A stretch of DNA of 32,000 nt from Candidatus Pelagibacter ubique HTCC1062 (GCF_000012345.1 NC_007205.1:30001-62000); one strand, 5' to 3'. Counted from the stretch's first letter, positions 9,050 to 32,000 are shown. Notes: a model not told the origin generated them from the letters alone. Program-made: numbers and translations.

Positions 9050-9410
9050 GTTTGCTAGACAAACTATAAGCCGGGTTCTGTCATTTAAACCTATCATTTC
9101 TCTAGGCTTAAGATCACTCTTAAGCTCATGCAACTAACCCTGATGACTAGCCAAAGACGGCTTTTAGTTTTGCAACAATGTCATCTCTACTTAGTCTTGC
9201 TCCCAGTGGGGTTTTCCAGCGTTCATTGTTACCAATAGAACCGGTGCGCTCTTACCACACCTTTTCACCCTTGCCATGTTATGGCGGTATATTTTCTGTG
9301 GCACTATCCCTAGGGTTTCCCCCGCCAGGTATTATCTGGCACTGTGTCTTTGCGGAGCCCGGACTTTCCTCTTTAATAAATTAAAGCGATAAGTCGTTCA
9401 TCTAGCAAAT
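9050..9410 (-). ncRNA. rnpB: RNase P RNA, bacterial type A
   Basis: The reverse complement contains the universally conserved blocks GAGGAAAGTCCGGGCTCC, GTGCCAGATAATACCTGGCGGGGGAAACCC, AAGGGTGAAAAGGTGTGGTAAGAGCGCACC and ACAGAACCCGGCTTAT. A P1 helix forms between TTGCTAGA (5' end, about 9409) and TCTAGCAA (3' end, about 9052). The ends are approximate to within about 5 nt. Confidence 0.9.
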
Positions 9411-11673: not shown

Positions 11674-11750
11674 TGGTGGGCCCGCCAGGACTCGAACCTG
11701 GGACCAATACATTATGAGTGTACTGCTCTAACCAACTGAGCTACAGGCCC
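11674..11750 (-). tRNA. tRNA with CAT anticodon (elongator Met, or Ile2 read via lysidine)
   Basis: The reverse complement is GGGCCTG TA GCTC AGTTGGTTA GAGC A GTACA CTCATAA TGTAT TGGTC CCAGG TTCGAGT CCTGG CGGGCCC A CCA. This is a perfect 77-nt cloverleaf with canonical GG in the D loop, TTCGA in the T loop and an encoded CCA. The acceptor pairs C4:G69 and C5:G68 resemble Ile2 rather than Met. Confidence 0.9.
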
Positions 11751-11816: not shown

Positions 11817-11891
11817 TGGTGGGACTGGTTGGTTACGCTCCAACTACCCCTGCAATGTCAATGCAGTACTCTACTATTGAGCTACAGTCCC
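11817..11891 (-). tRNA. tRNA-Val (anticodon GAC) with non-canonical D and T loops
   Basis: The reverse complement is GGGACTG TA GCTC AATAGTA GAGT A CTGCA TTGACAT TGCAG GGGTA GTTGG AGCGTAA CCAAC CAGTCCC A CCA. It is 75 nt with 7/4/5/5-bp stems, all paired (one G:U), and an encoded CCA. The D loop lacks the GG dinucleotide, and the T loop is AGCGTAA instead of TTCRANN. It lies 8 nt downstream of the rpoD stop. Confidence 0.7.
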
Positions 11892-20649: not shown

Positions 20650-22881
20650 TTAAAAGATTTTCTTTAAATTAATCGTTGCTTCATCAAAAGTATTTGGTTT
20701 CAATACATCTTGATTGTTTAATTTAAAATCAATTTCAAAATCATTAATATTTTTACTTATCTTAAATTCAGATCCTAAATTTTCTGAGCCTGCTAATTTA
20801 AAAGCATAATTAGTTTTTCTGTTTGGTAAATATCCTATAGCTAAATGTATTTTATCAGTATGACCGGTGCCTAATGCTTGATTTCTCTCATAGATTAAAA
20901 AGATACTAAAACTATCTGGTAAAATTATATCTATACCTAATTCACCATTTAAATTGTGTAAAGCACCTGAGTTTAACTTGGTATCAAATTCACCACTTGT
21001 TGCATCAGAGACGTAAGAATATTTTATATTAGAAGAACGATTTAAGTTTGCTTTGTATTCTAATTTTCCATGCTTTCTAATTTTATATTTTTCATTTTTT
21101 AATTCATCAACTGCAGCAATTGAAAGTCTTGCATTTCTTGATCGAATGCCTTGCTTTTTAAATTTCATAGCAGTGTTACCACTTTCTTGATAACCATCTA
21201 ATAAAGTGTAACCAAGGTCTATTTGTCCAGAAGGGATTAGAATTAAATTATTTTTCTTAATCTCATCTTTTAATTTAATTGTTCCATATATTTGTCTACC
21301 TTTTCTATCAGCTGTTACACGTTCACCATCAAGCACTGATAAAATATCTGAATTAAGGACACCTACTCCAATAACTGTGTCTATAAATTTTGTATCATCT
21401 TCAATTGGGGATGAGGAATAATGGGTTAAATTATAAGTATTCGTATCTAAATTGCTTCCAGCTGAGCCAACATCAACATCATTTTTACCAAACCTAAAAG
21501 CAAGCCCCCTTATGCCATTATTTTTGGTAAATTTATCTGCTCCAACTGTAATTGCGTTAGTTTTAATCTTTTTAAATGAAGAAACATTTGTCTCTCCAAC
21601 TCTGCCAACTGCAATACTTCCTTCGCTCCAATAAAATACGTCTTGTTGTTTATCTTTTTTCTTTGTAGTAGCTGAGGTTTTTACAACTTTAGTAAGAGAG
21701 GCAAGCATTTGATTGGTAAAATTAAGATCTAAATTAAGATTAGTTAAGTTTTGATTATCTTTGTTTCTTCTAATCCACTTTAATCTATTTAAAGCAGTGT
21801 CCGTTGAGTGTTCTATAGTTCTTGTTGCAACTTCTATTTGTGCAATAGCTATTCCAGTTCTGACACCTGTTGTGATACTCGGACATTTTCCTTCAATAAT
21901 ATTAAAAGGACACACTAAATCAAATTCAAAAACTTCATCCTTTCCGTTTTCATCTTTGTCACTACCAATGTACATTTTAAGACCAACCGCACTAAATGCA
22001 ATTCCTCTTGGTTGAGTAATATCACTAGATATTGAAACTGTACCGTCTATTGTAAATGAAGAAGTGGAAAAAGCCACATCAAGGGAAATTTGAGTTACAT
22101 CTTGTGTACTACCATTGTGATCAACAGCCCAAAATCTTTTTCCATCTGGACTAAATCTTATTCCTTGAGGGTTTGATACTTCATCATTTAGTTCTATTCC
22201 TGCATCTGTAATAATTGATATGGTACTTAGATCGTATGCAGTTGAAAGTTGGTACTCTAATAATCTTGTGTCTTGACCCGTCGCTCCATGAAAAATTGCA
22301 AATAATTTTGTTCCATCATTATTAATCTCAATACCTTGAAGTCTGTTATTAGTTCCCTCAGTAATATCTCCAGCATTACTACCATCTTGTAGAGTACCAG
22401 TATCAAGGTCTGAAGTTTGATTTGCGAATGCACATGTTGAAACATCATAGGGGGAAGTTAAATCAAATCTAAATACTCTATCATCATTTGCAGTACCTTT
22501 AGCATTTCCCCTAGACACAAACAGCATCAATCCATCATTAGAGAATTCTAGATCAGTAATAGCACTAATAGGACCCGAAGTCGTGTCACCACTATTTAAT
22601 ATACATACCTCATCATCACTCGCATAAGTTTTTGTAGAGACATTGAATGGTGTGCTTAAATCATATTCATTTATATGTGCATAAACACTAGAAATTGCTG
22701 AAACTTTTCTTTGGGTCACTGTAAACATTTTTGTTCCATCAGAATTAAAATGGATGCCGTTTATAAAGTCACTCCTATCATTGACTGCTGCTGACTGTAT
22801 TTTGGTAACCATAGCTCCAAATGAATTTGAGATGGGAAGTATAAATAATAAAATTAAAATAAAGTTTTTTATAAATTTCAT
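20650..22881 (-). CDS. Autotransporter-like outer-membrane protein, paralog 1 (propeller-blade repeats plus C-terminal beta-barrel)
   Basis: 743 aa with signal peptide MKFIKNFILILLFILPISNSFGA. Five repeats of about 50-70 aa (aa about 38-333) have the core [FI].[FI].[NSP]DG.K[ML][FY] ... [EF][YF].L[ST][TS].[YF][DN].S (HFNSDGTKMF, FSNDGLMLF, INNDGTKLF, FSPDGKRFW, FSAVGLKMY). A Cys loop C324-x8-C333 and a helical linker (ALNRLKWIRRNKD) follow. From WSEGSIAVGRVGE onward there are about 325 aa of alternating hydrophobic pattern ending ...INLKKIF (C-terminal Phe). Confidence 0.8.
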   Translation of the reverse strand: MKFIKNFILILLFILPISNSFGAMVTKIQSAAVNDRSDFINGIHFNSDGTKMFTVTQRKVSAISSVYAHINEYDLSTPFNVSTKTYASDDEVCILNSGDTTSGPISAITDLEFSNDGLMLFVSRGNAKGTANDDRVFRFDLTSPYDVSTCAFANQTSDLDTGTLQDGSNAGDITEGTNNRLQGIEINNDGTKLFAIFHGATGQDTRLLEYQLSTAYDLSTISIITDAGIELNDEVSNPQGIRFSPDGKRFWAVDHNGSTQDVTQISLDVAFSTSSFTIDGTVSISSDITQPRGIAFSAVGLKMYIGSDKDENGKDEVFEFDLVCPFNIIEGKCPSITTGVRTGIAIAQIEVATRTIEHSTDTALNRLKWIRRNKDNQNLTNLNLDLNFTNQMLASLTKVVKTSATTKKKDKQQDVFYWSEGSIAVGRVGETNVSSFKKIKTNAITVGADKFTKNNGIRGLAFRFGKNDVDVGSAGSNLDTNTYNLTHYSSSPIEDDTKFIDTVIGVGVLNSDILSVLDGERVTADRKGRQIYGTIKLKDEIKKNNLILIPSGQIDLGYTLLDGYQESGNTAMKFKKQGIRSRNARLSIAAVDELKNEKYKIRKHGKLEYKANLNRSSNIKYSYVSDATSGEFDTKLNSGALHNLNGELGIDIILPDSFSIFLIYERNQALGTGHTDKIHLAIGYLPNRKTNYAFKLAGSENLGSEFKISKNINDFEIDFKLNNQDVLKPNTFDEATINLKKIF

Positions 22882-22885
22882 AAGA

Positions 22886-23026
22886 TTAAAATGTTGTTGA
22901 CAATTTAATACTCAGGTCTTTAAATTGTTTATTTACCACTTCAACTATTCCAGCTTGTGCTTGCATCAAAATAAAAAATGATGACACAAGTGAACCGACA
23001 GCTAATTTTCTTAAAAAAAATACCAT
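22886..23026 (-). CDS. Candidate 46-aa secreted mini-protein immediately upstream of paralog 1 (below the ORF-track size cutoff)
   Basis: Hand translation of the minus strand gives MVFFLRKLAVGSLVSSFFILMQAQA/GIVEVVNKQFKDLSIKLSTTF*. That is a positive n-region, a hydrophobic core and an AQA cleavage-type motif, leaving a 21-aa mature peptide ending in Phe. The stop lies 4 nt before the paralog-1 ATG. No Shine-Dalgarno is visible. It may be a relic or a chance ORF. Confidence 0.3.
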   Translation of the reverse strand: MVFFLRKLAVGSLVSSFFILMQAQAGIVEVVNKQFKDLSIKLSTTF

Positions 23027-23176
23027 AATGAAAAATACTATATAAAATTTAATTTAGCGGTTTTTCAGCTCTTTTAAGTGCTCAAAACGGGCAGAAATTC
23101 TAATATTGAGTGCGTTTTATCGAGGATAAAATAATCTTCATCAAAAATTCAAATATATAAATTTTAATAAATCAAG

Positions 23177-25348
23177 ATGCTTAATTTAATAAAAAAAAGT
23201 AAAAAATTAATTATAAAAGGTGCTCTTAAACTAAAAGTATTTTTAGTTTTATTTAGTTTATTTTTTTCATCACTAGCTTTAGCTGAACCTACATTTATTG
23301 CTAATTTTAATGTCCAAGACAAAGAAACTTCACCTACTGGGATAACATTTAATCCTGATGGTACCAAAATGTTTATTACAGGAATAAATATGCGAAAAAT
23401 ACTACAATATAATTTAACTACAGCTTTTGATGTTACTTCAGCAGCTTTTGAAAAGTCTGTGTTAATCCAAGTAGAACAGGATAAACCACAAGATGTAAAA
23501 TTTAATTCAGATGGAACTGTAATTTTTCTTTTAGGAACGGGAACTGGAGTAATAGATGGAGTGGATGCTGCTAGAAATGGGATTCATAGATGGTCTTTAA
23601 GTACACCATATGATATTGGATCGATCACTCCAGCAAATACCACTTTTACTGAAGTTGGTGGTGATAACCCAAGAGGATTAGCTTTTAATAATGATGGAAC
23701 AAAAATGTTTATTTTGGATAATACTGCTCAGCGGGTAGAAGAATACAATCTTTCAACACCATATAACCCTGATACTAAAGGTTCTGTAGCCAACACACTT
23801 GGTAATGCAAGGAGTGCTAGTCATCAGGGACTAGGTTTTAATAATGATGGATCAAAAATATTTATAGTAAAACAAGACAATAAAATTGATGAATATGCTT
23901 TATCTACTGCTTTCGATCTATCAAGCGCAACATTAACTGGTACAGTCTCACCGACATTTCCAGTTACAAATAAAAGGTTAAGTGGCTTTGCTTTCAATAG
24001 TTCTGGAACAAAAATGTATCACTTAGATTGGCATACACTTACTGATGCTGACAATGTAAATGAGTATAGCTTAAGCTGTCCTTTTGCAGTTGTTAGTTCA
24101 TCAACGTGTGGAGCCCCACAAAAAAATAAAGATGTAAGGGGTGTAGTTGATGCACAAATTAATACTGCTAAAAATTTTGCTAAAGATTCAAGTCAGTCTG
24201 CTTTAAAAAGATTATCTATTTTAAGAGCGAATAAATACTACAACGCAAGTGCACAAAATATAGAGTTAAACTTTCAAAATGAATTATTAAAGAAAGTATC
24301 CAATAATGTTTTAAGTTCCGCACAAGCTAAATTAAACCCACTTCAAAAATTAGATCAAATTTTACCTAATGATTGGGAGGTATGGTCCGAAGGTAGCATT
24401 AGTTTTGGAAAAATTGGTGAGAGCTCCTTAAGTTCTGCTCAAGATATTGATAGCCTTGGTATAACTGTGGGTGTTGATACAAAAATGGATGATGATAAAA
24501 TATTAGGAGTTGCTTTAAGAGTGGGTAGCACTGATGTTGATGTTGGAACCTTTGGTTCTAAAGTTGATACAAATGCATTAAGTTTATCTCTTTATGGAAT
24601 TAACAGTTTAGAAAACAGTAATTATTTAAAACACGTTTTTGGAGTTAGTTATTTAGATAGCAATATTGCAAGAAAATATGACGGAAATACCGACGCAAAT
24701 AAGGGTGAACGTGAGGGTAAACAGGTTTTTGGTTCACTTAATTTTGGAAAAGAATATGAAAATAGTGATTTAATTATTACTCCAACAGGTCGTATCGATG
24801 GAAGTTATACAGCACTTAATGGTTATACAGAAAGTGGCATTGCAGCACTTAGTTATAATGATCAAGACATCAGTTCATTAATGGCTTCTTTAGGAGTATT
24901 AATAGACCAAGATGTTGATCTAGAAAATTCAACTGTAAGATCTAGAATTAATCTTGAATACAGTAAAGAGTTTGCCTCAAGCTCTAAGGTGGTAACAAGC
25001 TACGTATCAAACAGTGAAAGTTTTGAATATCAAGCTGATAACAAAAATAGAGATATATACACAGCAGGACTTGGTTTAGATTTTAAGCATGACCAAGGGT
25101 TAATAATTAGTACTGATTACGAAAGACAGCAAATCAAGGGTCATGGTTATATTAATAAATTTACATTATCAGCAGGCTTTTTATATAGAAAAGAAACAGA
25201 GTTTGCACTTGGTCTTGATGAAGAAATGACTTCGAGCTTTAAAATTTCTAAAGCACTAGGTGTATTTGATTTAGAATTTGATTTAGAAAATAATTTTTCA
25301 AATCAAGAAAATCATAATGCTAACTTATCTATATTAAGTAAATTTTAA
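23177..25348 (+). CDS. Autotransporter-like outer-membrane protein, paralog 2
   Basis: 723 aa with an extended signal peptide ending FSLFFSSLALA/EP. The five repeats are FNPDGTKMFI...QYNLTTAFDVTS, FNSDGTVIFL...RWSLSTPYDIGS, FNNDGTKMFI...EYNLSTPYNPDT, FNNDGSKIFI...EYALSTAFDLSS and FNSSGTKMYH...EYSLSCPF. A Cys loop C301-x9-C311, a linker (ALKRLSILRANK) and a barrel from WEVWSEGSISFGKIGE follow, ending ...LSILSKF. Confidence 0.8.
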   Translation: MLNLIKKSKKLIIKGALKLKVFLVLFSLFFSSLALAEPTFIANFNVQDKETSPTGITFNPDGTKMFITGINMRKILQYNLTTAFDVTSAAFEKSVLIQVEQDKPQDVKFNSDGTVIFLLGTGTGVIDGVDAARNGIHRWSLSTPYDIGSITPANTTFTEVGGDNPRGLAFNNDGTKMFILDNTAQRVEEYNLSTPYNPDTKGSVANTLGNARSASHQGLGFNNDGSKIFIVKQDNKIDEYALSTAFDLSSATLTGTVSPTFPVTNKRLSGFAFNSSGTKMYHLDWHTLTDADNVNEYSLSCPFAVVSSSTCGAPQKNKDVRGVVDAQINTAKNFAKDSSQSALKRLSILRANKYYNASAQNIELNFQNELLKKVSNNVLSSAQAKLNPLQKLDQILPNDWEVWSEGSISFGKIGESSLSSAQDIDSLGITVGVDTKMDDDKILGVALRVGSTDVDVGTFGSKVDTNALSLSLYGINSLENSNYLKHVFGVSYLDSNIARKYDGNTDANKGEREGKQVFGSLNFGKEYENSDLIITPTGRIDGSYTALNGYTESGIAALSYNDQDISSLMASLGVLIDQDVDLENSTVRSRINLEYSKEFASSSKVVTSYVSNSESFEYQADNKNRDIYTAGLGLDFKHDQGLIISTDYERQQIKGHGYINKFTLSAGFLYRKETEFALGLDEEMTSSFKISKALGVFDLEFDLENNFSNQENHNANLSILSKF

Positions 25349-25692
25349 TGAGTAAAATAAAAATAGTTTTCTATTTAGCTTTAGCTTTTATTTTTTATAA
25401 AGGCTTTGTTGCATTTCAAAATTTTGAAATTGGTGTTGATGACAGGGTTGCATCTATAGAAGAAAAAGCAGATTTTGAAAAAGAAGGTGAAGTAATTGGT
25501 CTCATGATGTACTTGGGCGACCCACCAGAATTATATGAACATTTATTAACTAAGAATAAATCTAGGTGTTTAGAAATGAGACAAACAGCAGAAGAGAGCT
25601 CCTCTGCATACTATGAATGCGCAAGAGTGAACGCCGTCCTTAAAGGTGGAAAAATTGTAAGTATTATTAATGAAATTGAAGTTATAGAATAA
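25348..25692 (+). CDS. Hypothetical 114-aa membrane-anchored/secreted protein, translationally coupled to paralog 2
   Basis: Its ATG shares the A of the paralog-2 TAA (TAATG at 25346-25350). It has an N-terminal hydrophobic helix (IVFYLALAFIFYKGFVAF), then a charged soluble domain with two Cys (C74, C91). I recognise no family motif. Confidence 0.6.
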   Translation: MSKIKIVFYLALAFIFYKGFVAFQNFEIGVDDRVASIEEKADFEKEGEVIGLMMYLGDPPELYEHLLTKNKSRCLEMRQTAEESSSAYYECARVNAVLKGGKIVSIINEIEVIE

Positions 25693-25700
25693 TTATTAAA

Positions 25701-27875
25701 TTAAAATTTATTTGAAATTTCTATATTTGCACCATAGTCAGGTACATCACTTATAAAATTATAATTAGAGCTCATCTTTAAATCAAATCCATTTATGTTA
25801 TTTGTATATGAGAAACTAGTATTTTCAAAATTATTCAGATCAAATACAAATTTCATTTCATCAATTGGCACATACCCTACAGATAAATAAATTTCATTAC
25901 TATGACCTTTGCCGTTAGATTGAAATCTCTCAAAATTTCCAACGAATGACCATCCTGTTATGGAAGTGACATCAAAACCATAACCAATTCTAAGATTATG
26001 CTTTGATTTATTTTCTACATTATAATTGTAAACTGTACTTTGACTATTAAGATAATAAAATTCTGCATCTGATGATGGGCTTAGATCTGCAATATATTCT
26101 AATCGACCATGGTGATTAATAATTTCATCTTCTTCTTTATCTGTATCTGTTTTATCTAAAAGGACACCAAGTGTTATTAATGCTGATTTAATATTTTGCT
26201 CTTTATAAAGTAGTGCATCAGCTAAACTATCTCCAACAACAGTTCTTTCTCTAAATGCTTTTAGTTTTGTGTACCCTAAATCTAATTTAATACCTGGATT
26301 GAGATTTAAATCTTCATCAACTATTCTTTTTCCAAAATTAAATGATCCATATATCTGTTGACCTTCTCGGTTTCCCTCTAAAATGTTACCATAAATAACC
26401 CTTTTTTGATCTATATCTAGTAAACTAACTCCAATTAATGCATCTGTAAAAACGTGATCATCTCTAAGTTTGGTATCATATAGGGCAAAACTATATGCAT
26501 CTGTCTCTAATTTTGTTCCACTACTTCCAATATCAACATTATCGTTTGCATACTGAAAGACGTATCCATGCATAGCATCTCTGTCATCATCTTTAATTTT
26601 ATCTGCACCAACTGAGATACCATAGCTGTGAAAATCTCTTGATGATGAATTTATAGATTTATTTTTACCTAAGCTAATTCTACCTTCACTCCATTTAAAC
26701 CAATCCTCACTATCATAACTTCTATCATTTTCTTTTTTAGAATTTTTAAGAGCACTAACTAATTTTGATATTTTTTCATTTGTAAAATCAATTTCTGCAT
26801 TAAGATTTGATAAATTATCTTTATTTTTATGTCTTCTTAACCACTCAATTCGATGAAAGATTGGAAGAGTATTGTTTTTAATTATACGTTTTGATAATTC
26901 GACATTTGCTTCAATGATTGCTTTAACATCATTATTATTTGAGGCATCAATACAAGTAATGGTACCAGCGCAAGCTAAACTATATTCAAAAATTTTATTT
27001 GTTGAAGCAGTAGAGCCAGCATCATTAGTAACAAACAACTTCGTAAAATTTGCTGTGAAAATAAAGCCTCTCATATGACTAACTCTGCTACCTAGCTCGT
27101 ATTCAGTAGAAGTAGAAGAAATAGTTGTGATATCCCAAGGTGTACTTAGAGTGTATTTATGTATATTATTATTACCATCACCTGCGACATACAAAATTGA
27201 CCCATCCGAATGCAATTGAATATTTCTCATTCCTCCGTCAGAAGAGCTGGCTAGACTGGCTGATAAAGAACCCACTGAAACTCCAGATCGAAGATCAAAA
27301 GGAGTTGTTAATATATATTCTCTTATTTTATCTTGAGTTTTTCCACCCACAAACATACGTGTTCCGTCAGGTTTAAATGTTAAAGTTCTTACTTGATCTT
27401 CATTGCCAACACCCGTTATGTCTACTTCAAATATTTTCTCACAATCCAATGTAGAAGTATCCCAAGCAGTTGTTAATTTAAATTGATAGACTGCAACTCC
27501 AGGATTTCCAGAGTGATCTTTGTTGGTAGTTATAAACATTCTTGTTCCATCAGGTTTAAATTCAATAGCGTGTGGTAACTGCATATCTGTACTACATGTT
27601 AATTTTGTTCCAGCTCCATCAACAAATGTTCTTGTTGCTGTACTTATATCGAATGGAGTGCTGAGCGAATATTGAACTATGTAGGCATCATGATTTGCAA
27701 CACGATTTGTTATATACATTATGCTTCCGTCTGGTTTAAAGTTTATTCCTCTAACACCAGGTACATCTGTGGATAGTATTTTTTCTTTTTGAAATTCTAA
27801 AAAAGCAAAAGCATTAGAATAAAATAATGCTAAAAAGCTAAATACAAAAAATGATGTTTTGAGAATTTTTTTCAC
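25701..27875 (-). CDS. Autotransporter-like outer-membrane protein, paralog 3
   Basis: 724 aa with a GTG start and signal peptide MKKILKTSFFVFSFLALFYSNAFA. The repeats are FKPDGSIMYI...QYSLSTPFDIST, FKPDGTRMFI...QFKLTTAWDTST, FKPDGTRMFV...EYILTTPFDLRS, LHSDGSILYV...KYTLSTPWDITT and FTANFTKLFV...EYSLAC. A Cys loop C302-x5-C308, a linker (IFHRIEWLRRHKNKDN) and a barrel from WFKWSEGRISLGK follow, ending ...IEISNKF. Confidence 0.8.
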   Translation of the reverse strand: MKKILKTSFFVFSFLALFYSNAFAFLEFQKEKILSTDVPGVRGINFKPDGSIMYITNRVANHDAYIVQYSLSTPFDISTATRTFVDGAGTKLTCSTDMQLPHAIEFKPDGTRMFITTNKDHSGNPGVAVYQFKLTTAWDTSTLDCEKIFEVDITGVGNEDQVRTLTFKPDGTRMFVGGKTQDKIREYILTTPFDLRSGVSVGSLSASLASSSDGGMRNIQLHSDGSILYVAGDGNNNIHKYTLSTPWDITTISSTSTEYELGSRVSHMRGFIFTANFTKLFVTNDAGSTASTNKIFEYSLACAGTITCIDASNNNDVKAIIEANVELSKRIIKNNTLPIFHRIEWLRRHKNKDNLSNLNAEIDFTNEKISKLVSALKNSKKENDRSYDSEDWFKWSEGRISLGKNKSINSSSRDFHSYGISVGADKIKDDDRDAMHGYVFQYANDNVDIGSSGTKLETDAYSFALYDTKLRDDHVFTDALIGVSLLDIDQKRVIYGNILEGNREGQQIYGSFNFGKRIVDEDLNLNPGIKLDLGYTKLKAFRERTVVGDSLADALLYKEQNIKSALITLGVLLDKTDTDKEEDEIINHHGRLEYIADLSPSSDAEFYYLNSQSTVYNYNVENKSKHNLRIGYGFDVTSITGWSFVGNFERFQSNGKGHSNEIYLSVGYVPIDEMKFVFDLNNFENTSFSYTNNINGFDLKMSSNYNFISDVPDYGANIEISNKF

Positions 27876-27978
27876 CTTAGCAGATTAATGAAATTAGGAT
27901 AAATACAACCGTGTTGGTGCCCAAATCGAATTAAATTTGTTAGCTATAATATCATTTTAGAGTTTTCTCACATGTCGT

Positions 27979-28005
27979 GTTGACAACTGATCAAAATGGG
28001 TGGAA
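27979..28005 (+). promoter_or_regulatory. 27-nt conserved promoter/operator-like element, copy A (upstream of the regulator gene)
   Basis: The sequence is GTTGACAACTGATCAAAATGGGTGGAA. It starts with a consensus -35 hexamer TTGACA. It is 26/27 identical to the inverted copy at 29873-29899. It ends 30 nt before the in-frame ATG at 28036. Confidence 0.5.
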
Positions 28006-29004
28006 AAAACAACTTGTAAGACTTTAATAGAAATCATGATTAAAATTACAAATAAAACTAATGAAGAACAAATCTTCAAAATTATTAATGAAAATTTTAG
28101 TCAGTTAGCACCCTCATATTATTCGTTGGTAACTCATTGGTTTATTAATGCTTATAAAAATTTTAAAGGTATCGATAAGTATATAATTTTAATTTATCTG
28201 ATTAATAAAGACTTTATTCACTATAGAAAAAATGGACTAATGGTTGATTATGATACGTTTTATAAGGATAAAACACTAGAAATTCCAAATATTAATATTT
28301 CAGATATTGCAAGAGACCTTCTTATACCTAAGGAAAATGTAAGAAGAAAAATATCTGAATTAGAGAAAAAAGGTATTATTAAAAGAGCAGGAAAAAAGAT
28401 CTTTGTTGAAAGACCTGGCTTTATACAAACAAAAGCTAATATAACTTTAAAAGATTTTAGTAGTTTGGTTTCTACGTTTAGTGAAATTTTAAAAGATAAA
28501 AAAATAATTAAAGAACCTTTAAACACAGATCAAATTTCAAATTTAATTAAAGAAAATTTTTCTTTTTGTTGGTATCAATTTTACAAATTTTTATTCATAT
28601 TTTCTAACCGTTGGAAAACAGATACTAAAACTCAGGATTTAGAAACAATATGTGTGGGATTAATTGTAATGATTAATACTGTTCAAAATAGGGGTTTCAA
28701 AGACAAGAATTTAGATAGACAAAAATATTTTAAAGCAGTTCAAAAATCTAATCACATTGGTATTAACGCATTTTCTATAGCTGATATTACGGGAATTCCA
28801 AGGGCTACCGTTGTAAGAAAATTACAATTTTTAATCGAAAACAAATTTTTAAATATTAGTGAAAAAAAACTTTATAACTTTGCTATGGGGACACAAACTA
28901 AACAATTTAAAGTGCTCACTAAATTACAAGATAAAAATATGAAAGCTTTAGGTAAATTTTTGTATAAGGTTTTTAATCAGATTAAAATAATAAACACTAA
29001 TTAG
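28000..29004 (+). CDS. Putative transcriptional regulator with two tandem winged-helix-turn-helix domains (internal duplication)
   Basis: 334 aa from the GTG at 28000, or 322 aa from the ATG at 28036, which I think more likely because the conserved element overlaps the GTG. HTH1 is NINISDIARDLLIPKENVRRKISELEKKGIIKRAGKKIFV (nt about 28291-28407). HTH2 is GINAFSIADITGIPRATVVRKLQFLIENKFLNISEKKLYNF (nt about 28765-28881). The two align with each other at about 12/39 identity plus conservative changes, each preceded by a hydrophobic helical region. Confidence 0.65.
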   Translation: MEKTTCKTLIEIMIKITNKTNEEQIFKIINENFSQLAPSYYSLVTHWFINAYKNFKGIDKYIILIYLINKDFIHYRKNGLMVDYDTFYKDKTLEIPNINISDIARDLLIPKENVRRKISELEKKGIIKRAGKKIFVERPGFIQTKANITLKDFSSLVSTFSEILKDKKIIKEPLNTDQISNLIKENFSFCWYQFYKFLFIFSNRWKTDTKTQDLETICVGLIVMINTVQNRGFKDKNLDRQKYFKAVQKSNHIGINAFSIADITGIPRATVVRKLQFLIENKFLNISEKKLYNFAMGTQTKQFKVLTKLQDKNMKALGKFLYKVFNQIKIINTN

Positions 29005-29845
29005 ATTTTCTTAAAATAAAAACAAAGATTACGGAGGTTGCCATCATTACTAATGCATAGGCAGCTGTGGGTACCATATAAATAATATTATCAAATAATT
29101 GAGTAGCAACAAAAACTGCTAGGGTTCCATTTTGCAAACCACATTCTAAAGAGATAGCTCTTTGTTGAGGTGTCCCTGATGCAAAAAATTTAGCAACATA
29201 AAATCCTATCACCATCATAGTTACATTTAATATTAAGGCTATTAAACCTGCTCGAGTTAAAAAGCTTACAATTTTATCCCACTCTTCAATATATATTGCA
29301 GCAAAAACAAGTAAAAATAATGCAATAGAAAATCTTTGAATAAACTTCAAATTTTTTATGACAAGGTCACCAGTAAAATGCCTGATAGTCATTCCAATTA
29401 TTACTGGAACCGTAACTACAAAAAACATTTTTAAAGAAATGGATACCATTGTTATTTCTCTCTCAACATAGGTGATATCAAACAGATTAATTGAATTGAT
29501 CACAATGAATGGCACTGTTACTATACTTAATAAGCTCATAACTGCTGTCAGTGATATTGATAGCGCTACATCACCCTCTGCAAATTTTGTAAGAACATTG
29601 GAGGTTACACCCCCTGGAGCAGCTGCAATTATCATTACTCCTAAGGCCATTTCAATCGGCACACCTAAGGTAATGATAAGTAGATAGGCAACGATTGGTA
29701 AAACAATTAACTGACAAATAAAACCAATAAAAAAATCTTTAGGGTTTTTTGCAACTCTTAAAAAGTCATCTACTGTTAAAGAAGCTCCTAGTCCAAGCAT
29801 AATAATAGCTAGAGCGATTGGAGCGATGTTGGTTACTATTTCCAT
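28997..29845 (-). CDS. Bile acid:Na+ symporter (BASS/SBF) family transporter
   Basis: 282 aa and polytopic. It has LGLGASLTVDDF, AAAPGGVTSNVLTKFAEGDVALSISLTAVMSLLSIVTVPF and ECGLQNGTLA, the characteristic SBF-family crossover-helix motifs. Its 3' end overlaps the regulator 3' end by 8 nt. Confidence 0.88.
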   Translation of the reverse strand: MEIVTNIAPIALAIIMLGLGASLTVDDFLRVAKNPKDFFIGFICQLIVLPIVAYLLIITLGVPIEMALGVMIIAAAPGGVTSNVLTKFAEGDVALSISLTAVMSLLSIVTVPFIVINSINLFDITYVEREITMVSISLKMFFVVTVPVIIGMTIRHFTGDLVIKNLKFIQRFSIALFLLVFAAIYIEEWDKIVSFLTRAGLIALILNVTMMVIGFYVAKFFASGTPQQRAISLECGLQNGTLAVFVATQLFDNIIYMVPTAAYALVMMATSVIFVFILRKSN

Positions 29846-29872
29846 TAATTTAATTTAAAATTTCATGCATAG

Positions 29873-29910
29873 TTCCACCCATTTTGATCATTTGTCAACC
29901 CATTTTGGTC
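29873..29910 (-). promoter_or_regulatory. 27-nt conserved element, copy B, plus an upstream direct half-repeat (upstream of the BASS transporter gene)
   Basis: The minus strand reads GACCAAAATGGGTTGA-caaat-GATCAAAATGGGTGGA. The two 16-mers (29910-29895 and 29889-29874) are 14/16 identical and 21 bp apart. The 27-mer GTTGACAAATGATCAAAATGGGTGGAA (29899-29873) matches copy A at 26/27. It ends 27 nt before the transporter ATG (29845). Confidence 0.5.
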
Positions 29911-30068
29911 GGTTGTAAACAGGACAAGATAAATCCTAAAAAAAAACTACAAATATTAAAGTTAATTCGATTAAAGAACTAATAAAGATTTATTCTAAAT
30001 ACACTAAGATGCTTAAGAAATTATAAGATTTTTATCTTTTAAAAGATGGTGTTTAAAAAAAGCAAAAA

Positions 30069-32000
30069 CTATCCAATTGATATTAAAGTAAGATCATCAC
30101 TTAATTTTCCAGATTTAGAGCTGTCAATTATTTTTTTACTAATATCTGATAAGTGTTTCTTCGAATCTTTTGTGTAGTTATCTTCAATTATTTCAATTGA
30201 ACCTTCAATACCTATTTCTTGTCCTTCAGCATTTAAACTTTCAGACAATCCATCTGTAAAAACATAAAATTTGTTTCCATTTAAAACTTGTTTATTAATT
30301 TTATAAATTGATTTATTTTTTTGGTGAATAACCCCCATCGGCGGCGCTTCACTATCAAAATTTTGGTATTTACCATTTTTGTCTCTAATGATAGCTGGTT
30401 GATGTCCCGCATTTACCCATGAAACTTCTTTGGTAATTAAATCATATTTTCCAAGAACACATGTCACAAACATGCCTGATGTTTTGGTGAGAAATAAATC
30501 GTTATTCATATGAAGCATCATTTCATCTGGATCTACCTGATCTCTTGACATGACTTCAAATAAAGTAGAGGCTTTTGCCATCACCATTCCAGCATGAACT
30601 CCCTTACCTGCTACATCTGCAATTATAAAATTAATACTATCATTATGGGGATAAAAACTAAAAAAATCACCTGAAACTTCTCTCGAAGCAATATTAATTC
30701 CTTGCACAGGATAATTTTGTAAATCTCTTTTTGGTAAAAAATTTTCTTGAACTTTTACAGCCAAATTTATTTCTTTGGAAATTCTACTTCGCCACTTTTC
30801 TTTTTCATTTTCGCTAACCTCAAGCTTGTTCATCAATTTATTATAATAAAGTCCTATTACCCCTCCTGCAGTGAAAGGATCTTGTGGGCCTCTAACAGAG
30901 AGATCTCCACTTTCAGACTGTTTTTCAAGGATTGAAATTAAATCATGTTCTACTGAAACTGCATTATGTTCAGCAATATTTAATCCTAATTCCTCTTGTA
31001 AAGGAGTTACTCTTAATGGATAAAAATAATTTAAAATTTTTAAAATAATATAAGATCCAAAAAATGCGAAAGCACCAATTGCTAATATTCCTATAACCTG
31101 GACTTCAATTTGCTCTAACCTTGTAAGTCCTGTTCCTAATTTTTCTAAATCACTGAACAAACCAACTGAAATAGTTCCCCATACACCTGCTCCTAAATGA
31201 ACTGGCACTGCACCTACGACATCATCTATCTCATATTTGTTTAACAGTTCATTTATAAAAATTGCTACGATTGCACCAATAATACCAACAAAAATTGCCG
31301 TAACTGATGTCATTGAATTACAACCAGCTGTTATAGCAACCAATCCTGCAAGAGGACCTAATATTACATAAAATGGATCTGGTTTTTTAAATAATAAAAA
31401 TGAAATACCTAGTCCAGTTAACAACCCAAAAGCAGCAGAAAGAAATGTATTTATCAATATTAATGGCACTGTTTCATCCATTGCTCCATTACTTCCGCCA
31501 TTAAAACCAAACCAACCAAACCATAAAATTAAGGTTCCTAAAACGGCTAACGGAAAACTAGAGCCAGTAAATTTACCTTTATTAGACTCAGAATATTTAC
31601 CAATTCTTGGCCCTAAAATTAATACAGCAGCAAGTGCAATCCATCCTCCAACAGAATGAACAATAGTGCTACCAGCAAAATCAACAAAACCAAGTTCTGT
31701 TAACCATCCAGTATTTTTAATTTCTCCCGTAACAGCCGATAACTGCATTACAGTATCATTCATATTATTTAGATAACTGGATGACCAAGCCCAATGACCA
31801 ACAATTGGATAAATTATGCCAGTTGCAATTATCGTTATTATTAAATATCCATTAAATTTCATTCTTTCAGCCACAGCTCCAGAAACTATTGTTGCAGCAG
31901 TTGCAACAAACATGGCTTGGAACACAAAATATGTCATGTAATCAGCTTTTTCGGTTTTAAAGAAAAAAAGATCTGTTCCAAAAAAACCATTATAACTTGT
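30069..32000 (-). CDS. amt: Ammonium transporter (Amt/MEP) fused to a C-terminal SpoIIE/RsbU-type PP2C serine phosphatase domain (5' end runs off the window)
   Basis: The reading frame stays open upstream of the track ATG (31937) to the window end (TSYNGFFGTDLFFFKTEKADY-MTYF...), so the N-terminus is outside the window. Amt motifs are AATIVSGAVAERMKF, DFAGSTIVHSVGGW, WFGWFGFNGGS, GAVPVHLGAGVWGT and EELGLNIAEH (Amt part is nt about 30965-32000). After a linker of about 60 aa come the PP2C/SpoIIE motifs SGDFFSF, ADVAGKGVHAGMVMA, NAGHQP, FTDGLSE and SDDLTLISI (nt 30069 to about 30785). Confidence 0.9.
   Translation of the reverse strand, partial: TSYNGFFGTDLFFFKTEKADYMTYFVFQAMFVATAATIVSGAVAERMKFNGYLIITIIATGIIYPIVGHWAWSSSYLNNMNDTVMQLSAVTGEIKNTGWLTELGFVDFAGSTIVHSVGGWIALAAVLILGPRIGKYSESNKGKFTGSSFPLAVLGTLILWFGWFGFNGGSNGAMDETVPLILINTFLSAAFGLLTGLGISFLLFKKPDPFYVILGPLAGLVAITAGCNSMTSVTAIFVGIIGAIVAIFINELLNKYEIDDVVGAVPVHLGAGVWGTISVGLFSDLEKLGTGLTRLEQIEVQVIGILAIGAFAFFGSYIILKILNYFYPLRVTPLQEELGLNIAEHNAVSVEHDLISILEKQSESGDLSVRGPQDPFTAGGVIGLYYNKLMNKLEVSENEKEKWRSRISKEINLAVKVQENFLPKRDLQNYPVQGINIASREVSGDFFSFYPHNDSINFIIADVAGKGVHAGMVMAKASTLFEVMSRDQVDPDEMMLHMNNDLFLTKTSGMFVTCVLGKYDLITKEVSWVNAGHQPAIIRDKNGKYQNFDSEAPPMGVIHQKNKSIYKINKQVLNGNKFYVFTDGLSESLNAEGQEIGIEGSIEIIEDNYTKDSKKHLSDISKKIIDSSKSGKLSDDLTLISIG

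Follow-up and report, generated by a model that had tools for sequence, protein, structure and literature searches.

The 32-kb window analysed here (the whole 32,000-nt stretch NC_007205.1:30001-62000 of Candidatus Pelagibacter ubique HTCC1062, G+C ~30%) carries a 27-nt sequence that occurs twice in inverted orientation, once upstream of a regulator gene of the SAR11_0047 type and once upstream of a convergent gene for a transporter of the BASS/SBF sodium-symporter family. The gene order at this locus is three autotransporters (20650-27875), regulator (28036-29004, +), BASS transporter (28997-29845, -) and a fusion of an ammonium transporter with PP2C (amt-PP2C; 30069 to past 31937, -). The amt-PP2C gene, which a first-pass annotation made from the sequence alone had placed outside the window, lies partly inside it (30069-31937). 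Relatives of the regulator carry the names Candidatus Pelagibacter or Pelagibacteraceae. The locus is the SAR11 hypervariable region HVR1, in which SAR11_0046 was described as an autotransporter, SAR11_0047 as a 'lexA/cap' regulator, SAR11_0048 as a sodium symporter and SAR11_0049/50 as ammonium transporters, and which is noted for duplications and deletions of paralogues (PMC2217521). The SAR11_0046/0047 spacer was also listed, with no motif assigned, in the survey of structured RNAs in SAR11 intergenic regions by Meyer et al. 2009 (PMC2704228). The features of the window on which the analysis turns are given below, with positions counted from its first nucleotide; numbers preceded by L designate individual loci.

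27876-28035, plus strand: intergenic region between an autotransporter gene (25701-27875, minus strand) and the divergent regulator gene; holds the putative regulator promoter and its box; conserved in orthologues; paralogue of 29846-30068.
27906-27950, no strand assigned: second conserved block between the genes, ACAACCGTGTTGGTGCCCAAATCGAATTAAATTTGTTAGCTATAA, shared with L008, L014 and L015.
27980-27985, plus strand: TTGACA, -35-like hexamer of the regulator promoter, in fixed register to the box in orthologues.
27988-28001, plus strand: Box R, TGATCAAAATGGGT, 14-nt operator-like box in the -35/-10 spacer, defined by sequence and logo.
28001-28009, plus strand: TGG followed by AAAAAA, weak extended -10-like element 18 nt past the -35, overlapping the mis-annotated GTG 28000.
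28036-29004, plus strand: regulator of the SAR11_0047 type, 322 aa, predicted to be internally duplicated with two winged-helix modules.
28997-29845, minus strand: BASS/SBF sodium-symporter family transporter of the SAR11_0048 type, 282 aa, PF01758, convergent with the regulator.
29846-30068, minus strand: transporter-side intergenic region, from the amt-PP2C stop to the BASS start; inverted, diverged paralogue of 27876-28035 plus one extra 21-bp unit.
29869-29876, minus strand: TG-G-AACTAT, -10-like element of the transporter promoter, with AACTAT (29874-29869) 18 nt past the -35.
29877-29890, minus strand: Box T1 (proximal), TGATCAAAATGGGT, between -35 and -10 of the transporter promoter.
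29893-29898, minus strand: TTGACA, -35-like hexamer of the transporter promoter, invariant in 12/12 box-bearing transporter-side sequences compared.
29898-29911, minus strand: Box T2 (distal), CGACCAAAATGGGT, 21 bp upstream of T1; its final T is the first base of the -35.

The two copies of the 27-mer GTTGACAACTGATCAAAATGGGTGGAA, at 27979-28005 (+) and 29873-29899 (-), differ by one mismatch (26/27) and were the sole matches in the window when up to three mismatches were allowed. Since there was no third copy at this threshold and no 27-mer match in 100 dinucleotide-preserving shuffles, the repeat is real and beyond chance, as the first-pass annotation had claimed. The geometry that it had described was confirmed from the sequence: the copies are inverted, they end 30 nt (28006-28035) before the regulator ATG and 27 nt (29846-29872) before the BASS ATG, and each contains a TTGACA hexamer (27980-27985, +; 29898-29893, -). 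The 16-mer core GAYCAAAATGGGTKGA is present in three perfect copies, one on the regulator side (27989-28004, +) and two in direct orientation 21 bp apart on the transporter side (29874-29889 and 29895-29910, both -), where they form part of a 21-nt tandem unit that is 81% identical; this too had been noted in advance. The similarity exceeds the 27-mer, with an inverted arm of 36 nt at 83% identity, and both whole intergenic regions are collinear, though diverged. The 27-mer is not a discrete element and represents the conserved core of an inverted paralogous copy of the whole intergenic region.

Orthologous loci came from an exact-protein look-up, a scan of metagenomes with a protein pattern (80 loci with regulators of 57-100% identity) and a motif scan of GTDB (regulators 28-55% identical). 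Among loci that retained 100 nt or more of upstream DNA, a box was counted when CAAAATGGGT occurred with at most one mismatch in the 160 nt before the regulator and on its strand. All 90 protein-retrieved loci (90/90; 57-100% identity) have the box, 45-75 nt before the ATG, and so do 33 Pelagibacteraceae genomes among the GTDB matches listed, with regulators only 28-55% identical. Both sets together give 123/123, of which the 33 drawn from the GTDB matches listed had been found by motif; the chance expectation, estimated from base composition, is ~0.5% per locus. The element was thus found in every orthologous regulator promoter examined, and this phylogenetic footprinting upheld its description as conserved and promoter-proximal. 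In a logo of 90 unique 60-mers the 10-mer is nearly invariant. Of the positions before it, -4 is T (0.89), -3 is G (0.98) and -1 a pyrimidine; a TGA at +10 to +12 is conserved less strongly, and farther out the signal is close to background. Because T-4 and G-3 are conserved though they lie outside the positions used for selection, the unit is a 14-nt asymmetric box, TGnyCAAAATGGGT. Its dyad is limited to 3+3 (CCA..TGG), short of the palindrome that marks MarR operators.

The box is closely tied to this locus. In 857 kb of SAR11 DNA, a redundant set centred on the regulator locus, the 14-mer occurs 168 times: 125 copies are upstream of the regulator, 35 upstream of BASS, three at locus edges and five elsewhere, the last being two orphan boxes in L126 and third boxes in L064, L072 and L086. 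With 160/168 copies upstream of one or other gene, the motif is not dispersed, an outcome that the first-pass annotation had expected for a regulatory element. Genome collections were scanned with the tandem pattern CAAAATGGGT-N8-30-CAWWWTGGGT, for which ~200 chance matches were expected; many unrelated organisms were listed, and only the Pelagibacteraceae matches are informative. Of these, at least 38, 33 adjoin the regulator, three lie at locus edges and two are orphans (L104, L126) among the matches listed, and in L188 the matched box pair is on the BASS side. No tandem boxes were seen at an unrelated locus among the Pelagibacteraceae matches listed. The other autotransporters and the amt-PP2C genes, which had been put forward as further places for the motif, have no box upstream in L001 and the loci examined. 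Extra exact 10-mers in L129 and L130 fall inside ABC-permease coding sequence and were taken as chance.

The third box of three deep-clade loci, GATGGCCAAAATGGGTA, lies ~300 bp upstream of the regulator's own boxes (L064, 393; L072, 1703; L086, 1088). It stands beside two small open reading frames (ORFs; 66-77 aa; L069 2372-2886) that are divergent from the regulator and encode hydrophobic C-terminal tails. These ORFs for tail-anchored proteins may be further targets.

Relative to a TTGACA/TTGACT hexamer, the box starts at only three offsets. At -9 it abuts the -35, the last T of the box being the first T of the hexamer; at +12 it lies in the spacer; and at +22/+23 it lies over the -10, the hexamer being supplied by the CAAAAT of the box. 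The regulator promoter of the window uses +12 and its transporter promoter -9 and +12, while deep-clade regulator promoters use -9 and +23, with boxes 31-32 bp apart. In 75/82 unique regulator upstream sequences a hexamer TTGACA, TTGATA or TTGACT stands at fixed register to the box, and the best -35/-10 pair overlaps the box or lies directly against it. The same overlap or contact is seen in 17/17 box-bearing transporter upstream sequences, and in six unique transporter-side sequences the transporter -35 with AACTAT is the best such pair. From this we infer that the box is part of a sigma-70-like promoter with TTGACA, a spacing of 17-18 nt and an A-rich -10. Since the same 10-mer is kept in three registers, it would be recognised as a unit of its own and not as a sigma-factor hexamer.

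This architecture also bears on the start of the regulator. GTG 28000 lies inside the box/-10 region, gene callers take ATG 28036, all relatives align from ATG 28036, and L015 and many other loci have an in-frame stop between box and ATG. ATG 28036 is the real start and GTG 28000 is not, in agreement with the correction proposed in the first-pass annotation.

The candidate reader of the box is the adjacent regulator. Weak Pfam matches to winged helix-turn-helix (wHTH) domains fall one in each half of the 334-aa ORF, at residues 95-137 and 254-284. The N-terminal wHTH scores 26.9 bits for TrmB (PF01978; cut-off 25.6). HTH_24 is also just above its cut-off; MarR (PF01047; 23.1 bits, cut-off 24.6) and MarR_2 (PF12802; 21.5, cut-off 27) are both below. 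Relatives bear the automatic names 'MarR family' or 'Lrp family', and the family profile marginally matches SlyA (E = 0.0018), other MarR-type proteins and Lrp/AsnC-type wHTH domains. An AlphaFold2 (AF2) model (pLDDT 76, pTM 0.81) consists of two helical-bundle-plus-wHTH modules, for which a PDB fold search returned no full-length match and local wHTH matches only, with E > 0.07. Alignment of one half with the other by hhalign gave E = 3.5e-4 and 32% identity over 111 columns, and the gene contains an internal DNA repeat with copies 462 nt apart. Pfam, the AF2 model and hhalign thus agree on the single polypeptide with two tandem wHTH domains that had been proposed, and the protein is best described, from its sequence and model, as internally duplicated with two diverged winged-helix modules. 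The family numbers 579 representatives at E ≤ 0.001 among 1.84 billion entries, with full-length members of 315-360 aa. Its most conserved 12-residue windows (97 unique sequences, 28-100% identity) are 251-262 (TGIPRATVVRKL), 171-187 and 94-105 (LLIPKENVRRK); the first and last of these are the two recognition helices, whose invariance fits that of the DNA box.

The first-pass annotation had gone further and assigned the two 21-bp repeats to the two wHTH domains of one chain. This part was not supported. The regulator's own promoter in the window has a single box, and boxes are 21 bp apart on the transporter side and 28 bp or 31-32 bp apart in other lineages, a variation that a rigid two-domain reader could not span; one molecule per box is therefore the expected arrangement.

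On the transporter side, two boxes 21 bp apart precede BASS throughout the strain cluster of the window (L001-L003, L016-L027). Eight loci with regulators 74-79% identical (L030, L031, L033, L034, L035, L042, L048 and L066) share this pair, as does Ca. Pelagibacter sp. Uisw_116 (L188), for which the genome is complete. DNA farther upstream differs among the box-bearing loci, and the persistence of the boxes despite this links the element to the BASS gene in the window's clade. Alignment of the spacers shows the one on the transporter side to be an inverted paralogue of the entire spacer on the regulator side, plus one 21-bp unit. The paralogy extends over about 160-190 nt and includes a second block, ATAAATACA..GGTG..AAATC.AATTAAATTT.TTAGCTATAA; outside the box region, local alignment of the spacers scored against shuffles gave z = 25.8 in L031, 11.0 in L027 and 2.5 in the window. 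In the window the flanks are ~65-70% identical, against 26/27 for the core. The duplication is old, with decayed flanks and a retained core, so the 26/27 identity does not stem from a recent copy. Across 12 box-bearing transporter-side sequences the proximal TTGACA is invariant, whereas drift has turned its distal counterpart into TTTACA/TTTATA, the pattern expected if the proximal hexamer alone acts as a -35.

A sister clade with regulators of 66-69% identity (L004-L013, L044-L063) has a different arrangement, in which the regulator is followed on its own strand by BASS after 12-20 nt, and a single box precedes the pair. This operon behind one box is an independent link between regulator and BASS. 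The transporter has thus come under the box twice, through operon fusion in one of two sister lineages and through promoter duplication in the other. Because BASS is co-directional with the regulator in the 66-69% clade and convergent in the window and the deep clades, its orientation has probably flipped at least once in SAR11.

Divergence along the locus is uneven. Compared with window positions 25701-31937, L030, L031, L033, L034, L042 and L066 are 99% identical in amt-PP2C, 94-95% in BASS, at most 91% in the autotransporter and only 75-78% in the regulator, whose N-terminus reads MIKNIPSIS in these six loci and MIKITNK in the window, with the box unchanged. This mosaic looks like allele replacement by recombination inside HVR1.

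We propose, with a probability of about 0.68, that the box is an autoregulatory operator in sigma-70-like promoters, read by the SAR11_0047-type regulator and extended to the transporter in the lineage of the window. The adjacent regulator, a single-chain covalent pseudo-dimer, would bind the box and thereby control its own synthesis. In the window's lineage the whole regulator intergenic region would have been copied and inverted before the convergent BASS gene, and one 21-bp unit then duplicated in tandem, giving a transporter promoter with two boxes on the same face of the DNA. With one of these boxes abutting the -35 and the other in the spacer, BASS would come under the same control, an outcome that the sister clade would have reached by placing BASS behind the regulator in one operon. 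One regulator molecule would occupy each box. Repression is likeliest because the boxes overlap core promoter elements: bound regulator would occlude RNA polymerase, and a small molecule related to the transporter's substrate might lift the repression, as in MarR-type systems. Binding of the box by the regulator, repression, stoichiometry and ligand are all steps that we infer from sequence. A dual or activating role is possible, as the -9 box is centred near -42 and class II activators sit near -42.

Several observations weigh against this proposal. The -35 is perfect on both sides of the window, but its -10s are weak (AAAAAA and AACTAT, each preceded by TG-n), and a consensus promoter scanner called no promoter at either site; better -10s are found in orthologues (AAATAT, AAATAC, TATTAA, CAAAAT). 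In the close relatives L014, L015 and L038, a CHASE2-PP2C neighbour replaces amt-PP2C and the convergent BASS gene has no box, and in the deep clades convergent BASS, ~25 nt after a hydrolase-like gene, is likewise without one. Control of the transporter would therefore be lineage-specific, with the regulator itself as the universal target. Two single-cell genomes, AH-326-D14 (L104, 2633-2674) and AG-911-G16 (L126, 6653-6698), hold two boxes each by a divergent small membrane-protein gene. These orphans are at the ancestral position but lack a regulator gene downstream of them; L126 has an Amt-like gene in the regulator's place and has lost the -35 between the boxes. In these genomes the regulator may be encoded elsewhere or have been deleted recently, or the box may have a different reader. 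Single boxes at distant regulon members may also exist in SAR11 genomes.

The earlier view of the two convergent genes as one co-regulated module therefore holds for the window's clade and, in the form of an operon, for its sister clade, and fails to extend to L014, L015, L038 and the deep clades. The box at both the regulator and the BASS promoter is consistent with the proposed autoregulated sensor-plus-symporter module; such a module is not universal, and binding, its sign and the 'sensor' role are interpretation.

The orphan boxes raise the question of whether the box is instead a cis-regulatory site for another transcription factor or for an alternative sigma factor, which we consider unlikely. 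Sequence resemblances can be found for the latter: on the reverse strand the regulator-side copy reads CTTACAA-N14-CCCATTT, which we take to resemble the sigma-32 consensus, with ACCCATTT similar to its -10, and GTTKAC-N13-GGGT resembles a sigma-B-type promoter. Partner-switching genes (two STAS genes, an RsbW-like kinase and PP2C fusions) are moreover found near the locus in L001. However, 3' of the box there is no conserved partner hexamer, information at +13 to +34 being at most 0.6 bit except for the second box, and either sigma reading leaves the invariant CAAAAT as spacer, which is not normally conserved. A sigma-32 promoter on the opposite strand with ACCCATTT as its -10 was rejected for want of a conserved -35 partner and because the deep-clade spacing from the TTGAAC-like sequence to CCCAT, ~20 nt, is too long. 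The sigma-B-like GTTKAC-N13-GGGT was rejected on the unexplained CAAAAT and on the occurrence of the box in three registers. The constancy of the 10-mer across these registers relative to TTGACA also argues against any other reader, as does its confinement to one locus, since a site for a sigma factor or global factor should recur.

The transporter copy could also be without function, left behind by a recent gene conversion or inverted duplication, with only the regulator copy functional. The location in HVR1, the paralogous spacers and the relatives without transporter-side boxes are in keeping with this idea, but it is distinctly improbable. The event is old, and with flanks at ~65-70% both transporter boxes and the TTGACA are nevertheless intact, even where regulators differ by 25% and the upstream context differs. 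The distal hexamer has been free to drift (TTTACA/TTTATA), whereas the proximal TTGACA has not.

An element acting at the RNA level, either a 5'-leader motif or a tiny upstream ORF from the ATG of the box, has the invariance of that ATG in its favour, together with a short ORF at either copy, MGGKNNL* before the regulator and MGGTMHEILN* before the transporter. We regard it as very improbable. An RNA structure was rejected since 27800-30150 has no Rfam match beyond noise at E up to 5 and folding is no better than in shuffles (z = +1.7, +0.5, +1.1); conservation, moreover, is in sequence and without covariation. The upstream ORF was rejected for its variable length and frame: distal and deep-clade boxes give MG*, and the ATG shares the regulator's reading frame in L069 and is out of frame in L088. 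It has no Shine-Dalgarno sequence, and in the window's clade its ATG would lie 10 nt past the -35.

We give almost no credence to the idea that the repeats delimit a mobile or invertible cassette (terminal inverted repeats, a miniature inverted-repeat transposable element or a recombination substrate) or are the iterons of a Rep-like protein, because the inverted 27-mers bracketing a 1.9-kb two-gene unit, the 21-bp direct repeats and a Phage_rep_O match of 22.7 bits (cut-off 28.7) are outweighed, for the cassette, by the absence of dispersal, of a transposase or recombinase at the locus and of any inverted variant in ~25 loci (the regulator end invariably borders the autotransporter, and the BASS end amt-PP2C) and by a regulator-side copy that is present in every lineage, mostly without a partner, and, for iterons, by at most two boxes per site against an array of at least 3-4 and by the lack of a family match or a RepE/pi fold match, with local wHTH matches only (E > 0.07).

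The autoregulatory operator that we favour shares traits with several known systems. MarR-type regulators (MarR/marO, MexR, EmrR, SlyA) are alike in their winged-helix DNA binding, as far as the marginal profile matches go, and in a site that overlaps their own -35/-10 and those of a neighbouring transporter, although the promoters here are predicted ones. Ligand-relieved repression is expected of this family. In contrast to the MarR homodimer of 140-170-aa (~150) subunits with one wHTH each, there is here one 322-aa chain with two, an asymmetric box and no full-length PDB match. With Pfam MarR below its cut-off, no 150-aa subunit and no palindrome, the regulator is not a canonical MarR member. 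MarA, SoxS and Rob (AraC/XylS) resemble it in that one chain with two reading heads binds a non-palindromic site of ~14-20 bp. Marboxes also fall into a few classes of fixed orientation and distance to the -35, comparable to the registers -9, +12 and +23 here. They differ in being activators with an AraC-type HTH and large regulons, whereas here a winged helix, overlap with the core promoter and one locus are seen. Iteron initiators (RepE, pi, RepA) likewise have two winged-helix domains in one chain and direct repeats of 19-22 bp, comparable to the 21 bp, or two helical turns, here, and they autoregulate through sites in their own promoters. However, the locus is chromosomal and syntenic throughout SAR11, with one or two boxes, no Rep_3 or fold match and no origin features. 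To the TrmB family (PF01978) the likeness is an N-terminal wHTH just over the Pfam cut-off; the match spans 34 wHTH residues, no sugar-binding C-terminal domain was detected, and the second half is another wHTH.

The BASS protein is well supported as a family member, with 119.5 bits for PF01758 (cut-off 24.3) over profile positions 1-190 of 191 and a match to the ASBT structures 3ZUX/3ZUY at E = 1e-27. It scores under the TIGR00841 and PanS equivalog cut-offs, and its substrate was therefore not assigned. The regulator and BASS genes share 8 nt at their 3' ends (28997-29004), and no terminator-like hairpin was found between them, the sole call being inside the BASS gene (29614-29600); their transcripts should run antisense into one another.

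The conserved block 27906-27950 (ACAACCGTGTTGGTGCCCAAATCGAATTAAATTTGTTAGCTATAA) is also retained in the transporter-side paralogue of L027 and L031 and has no Rfam match; it may serve the divergent autotransporter as a promoter or 5' leader. The three autotransporters (20650-27875) are paralogues with a mutual identity of ~30% and beta-propeller or lactonase-like passengers. The last of them contains internal repeats of 180-183 nt (27351-27741), and its identity among otherwise close strains ranges from 48% to 99%. On the other side of the locus are two tandem genes for ammonium transporter-SpoIIE/PP2C fusions (window 30069-31937, L001 1-9777). In L001 these are near two STAS (anti-sigma-antagonist-like) genes, an RsbW-like HATPase_c_2 gene and type II secretion and pilin genes, and a partner-switching cascade fed by an Amt 'transceptor' could operate there. 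Elsewhere the window has an ordinary class A RNase P RNA (282 bits, 9051-9405, -) and ordinary tRNA genes (11677-11750 and 11820-11891, both -).

Literature searches on the SAR11 regulator, the motif and the BASS gene turned up nothing beyond the HVR1 gene table and the list of intergenic regions, and the text of a Red Sea transcription start site paper does not cover the regulator gene. No description of the box was found in the literature searched.

SAR11 is the most abundant ocean heterotroph, with very few transcription factors and poorly known regulation. For this group the analysis provides a precise, conserved 14-bp box together with a candidate cognate two-winged-helix regulator, and it corrects a mis-annotated start codon. 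In kind this is ordinary bacterial gene control; it involves no new mechanism and is useful for SAR11 biology and annotation. The arrival of the same transporter under the box by two routes is a natural experiment, and the regulator-operator pair offers a handle on the substrate of the BASS transporter in HVR1. Tentatively, and at rather less than even odds, the SAR11_0047 family might form a distinct regulator class, a fused two-winged-helix pseudo-dimer in which one chain reads an asymmetric 14-bp box in three registers, with repeated capture of BASS, and would be among the few dedicated transcription factors retained throughout the streamlined SAR11 lineage. If so, the identity of the ligand of this family would reveal a metabolite that SAR11 senses.

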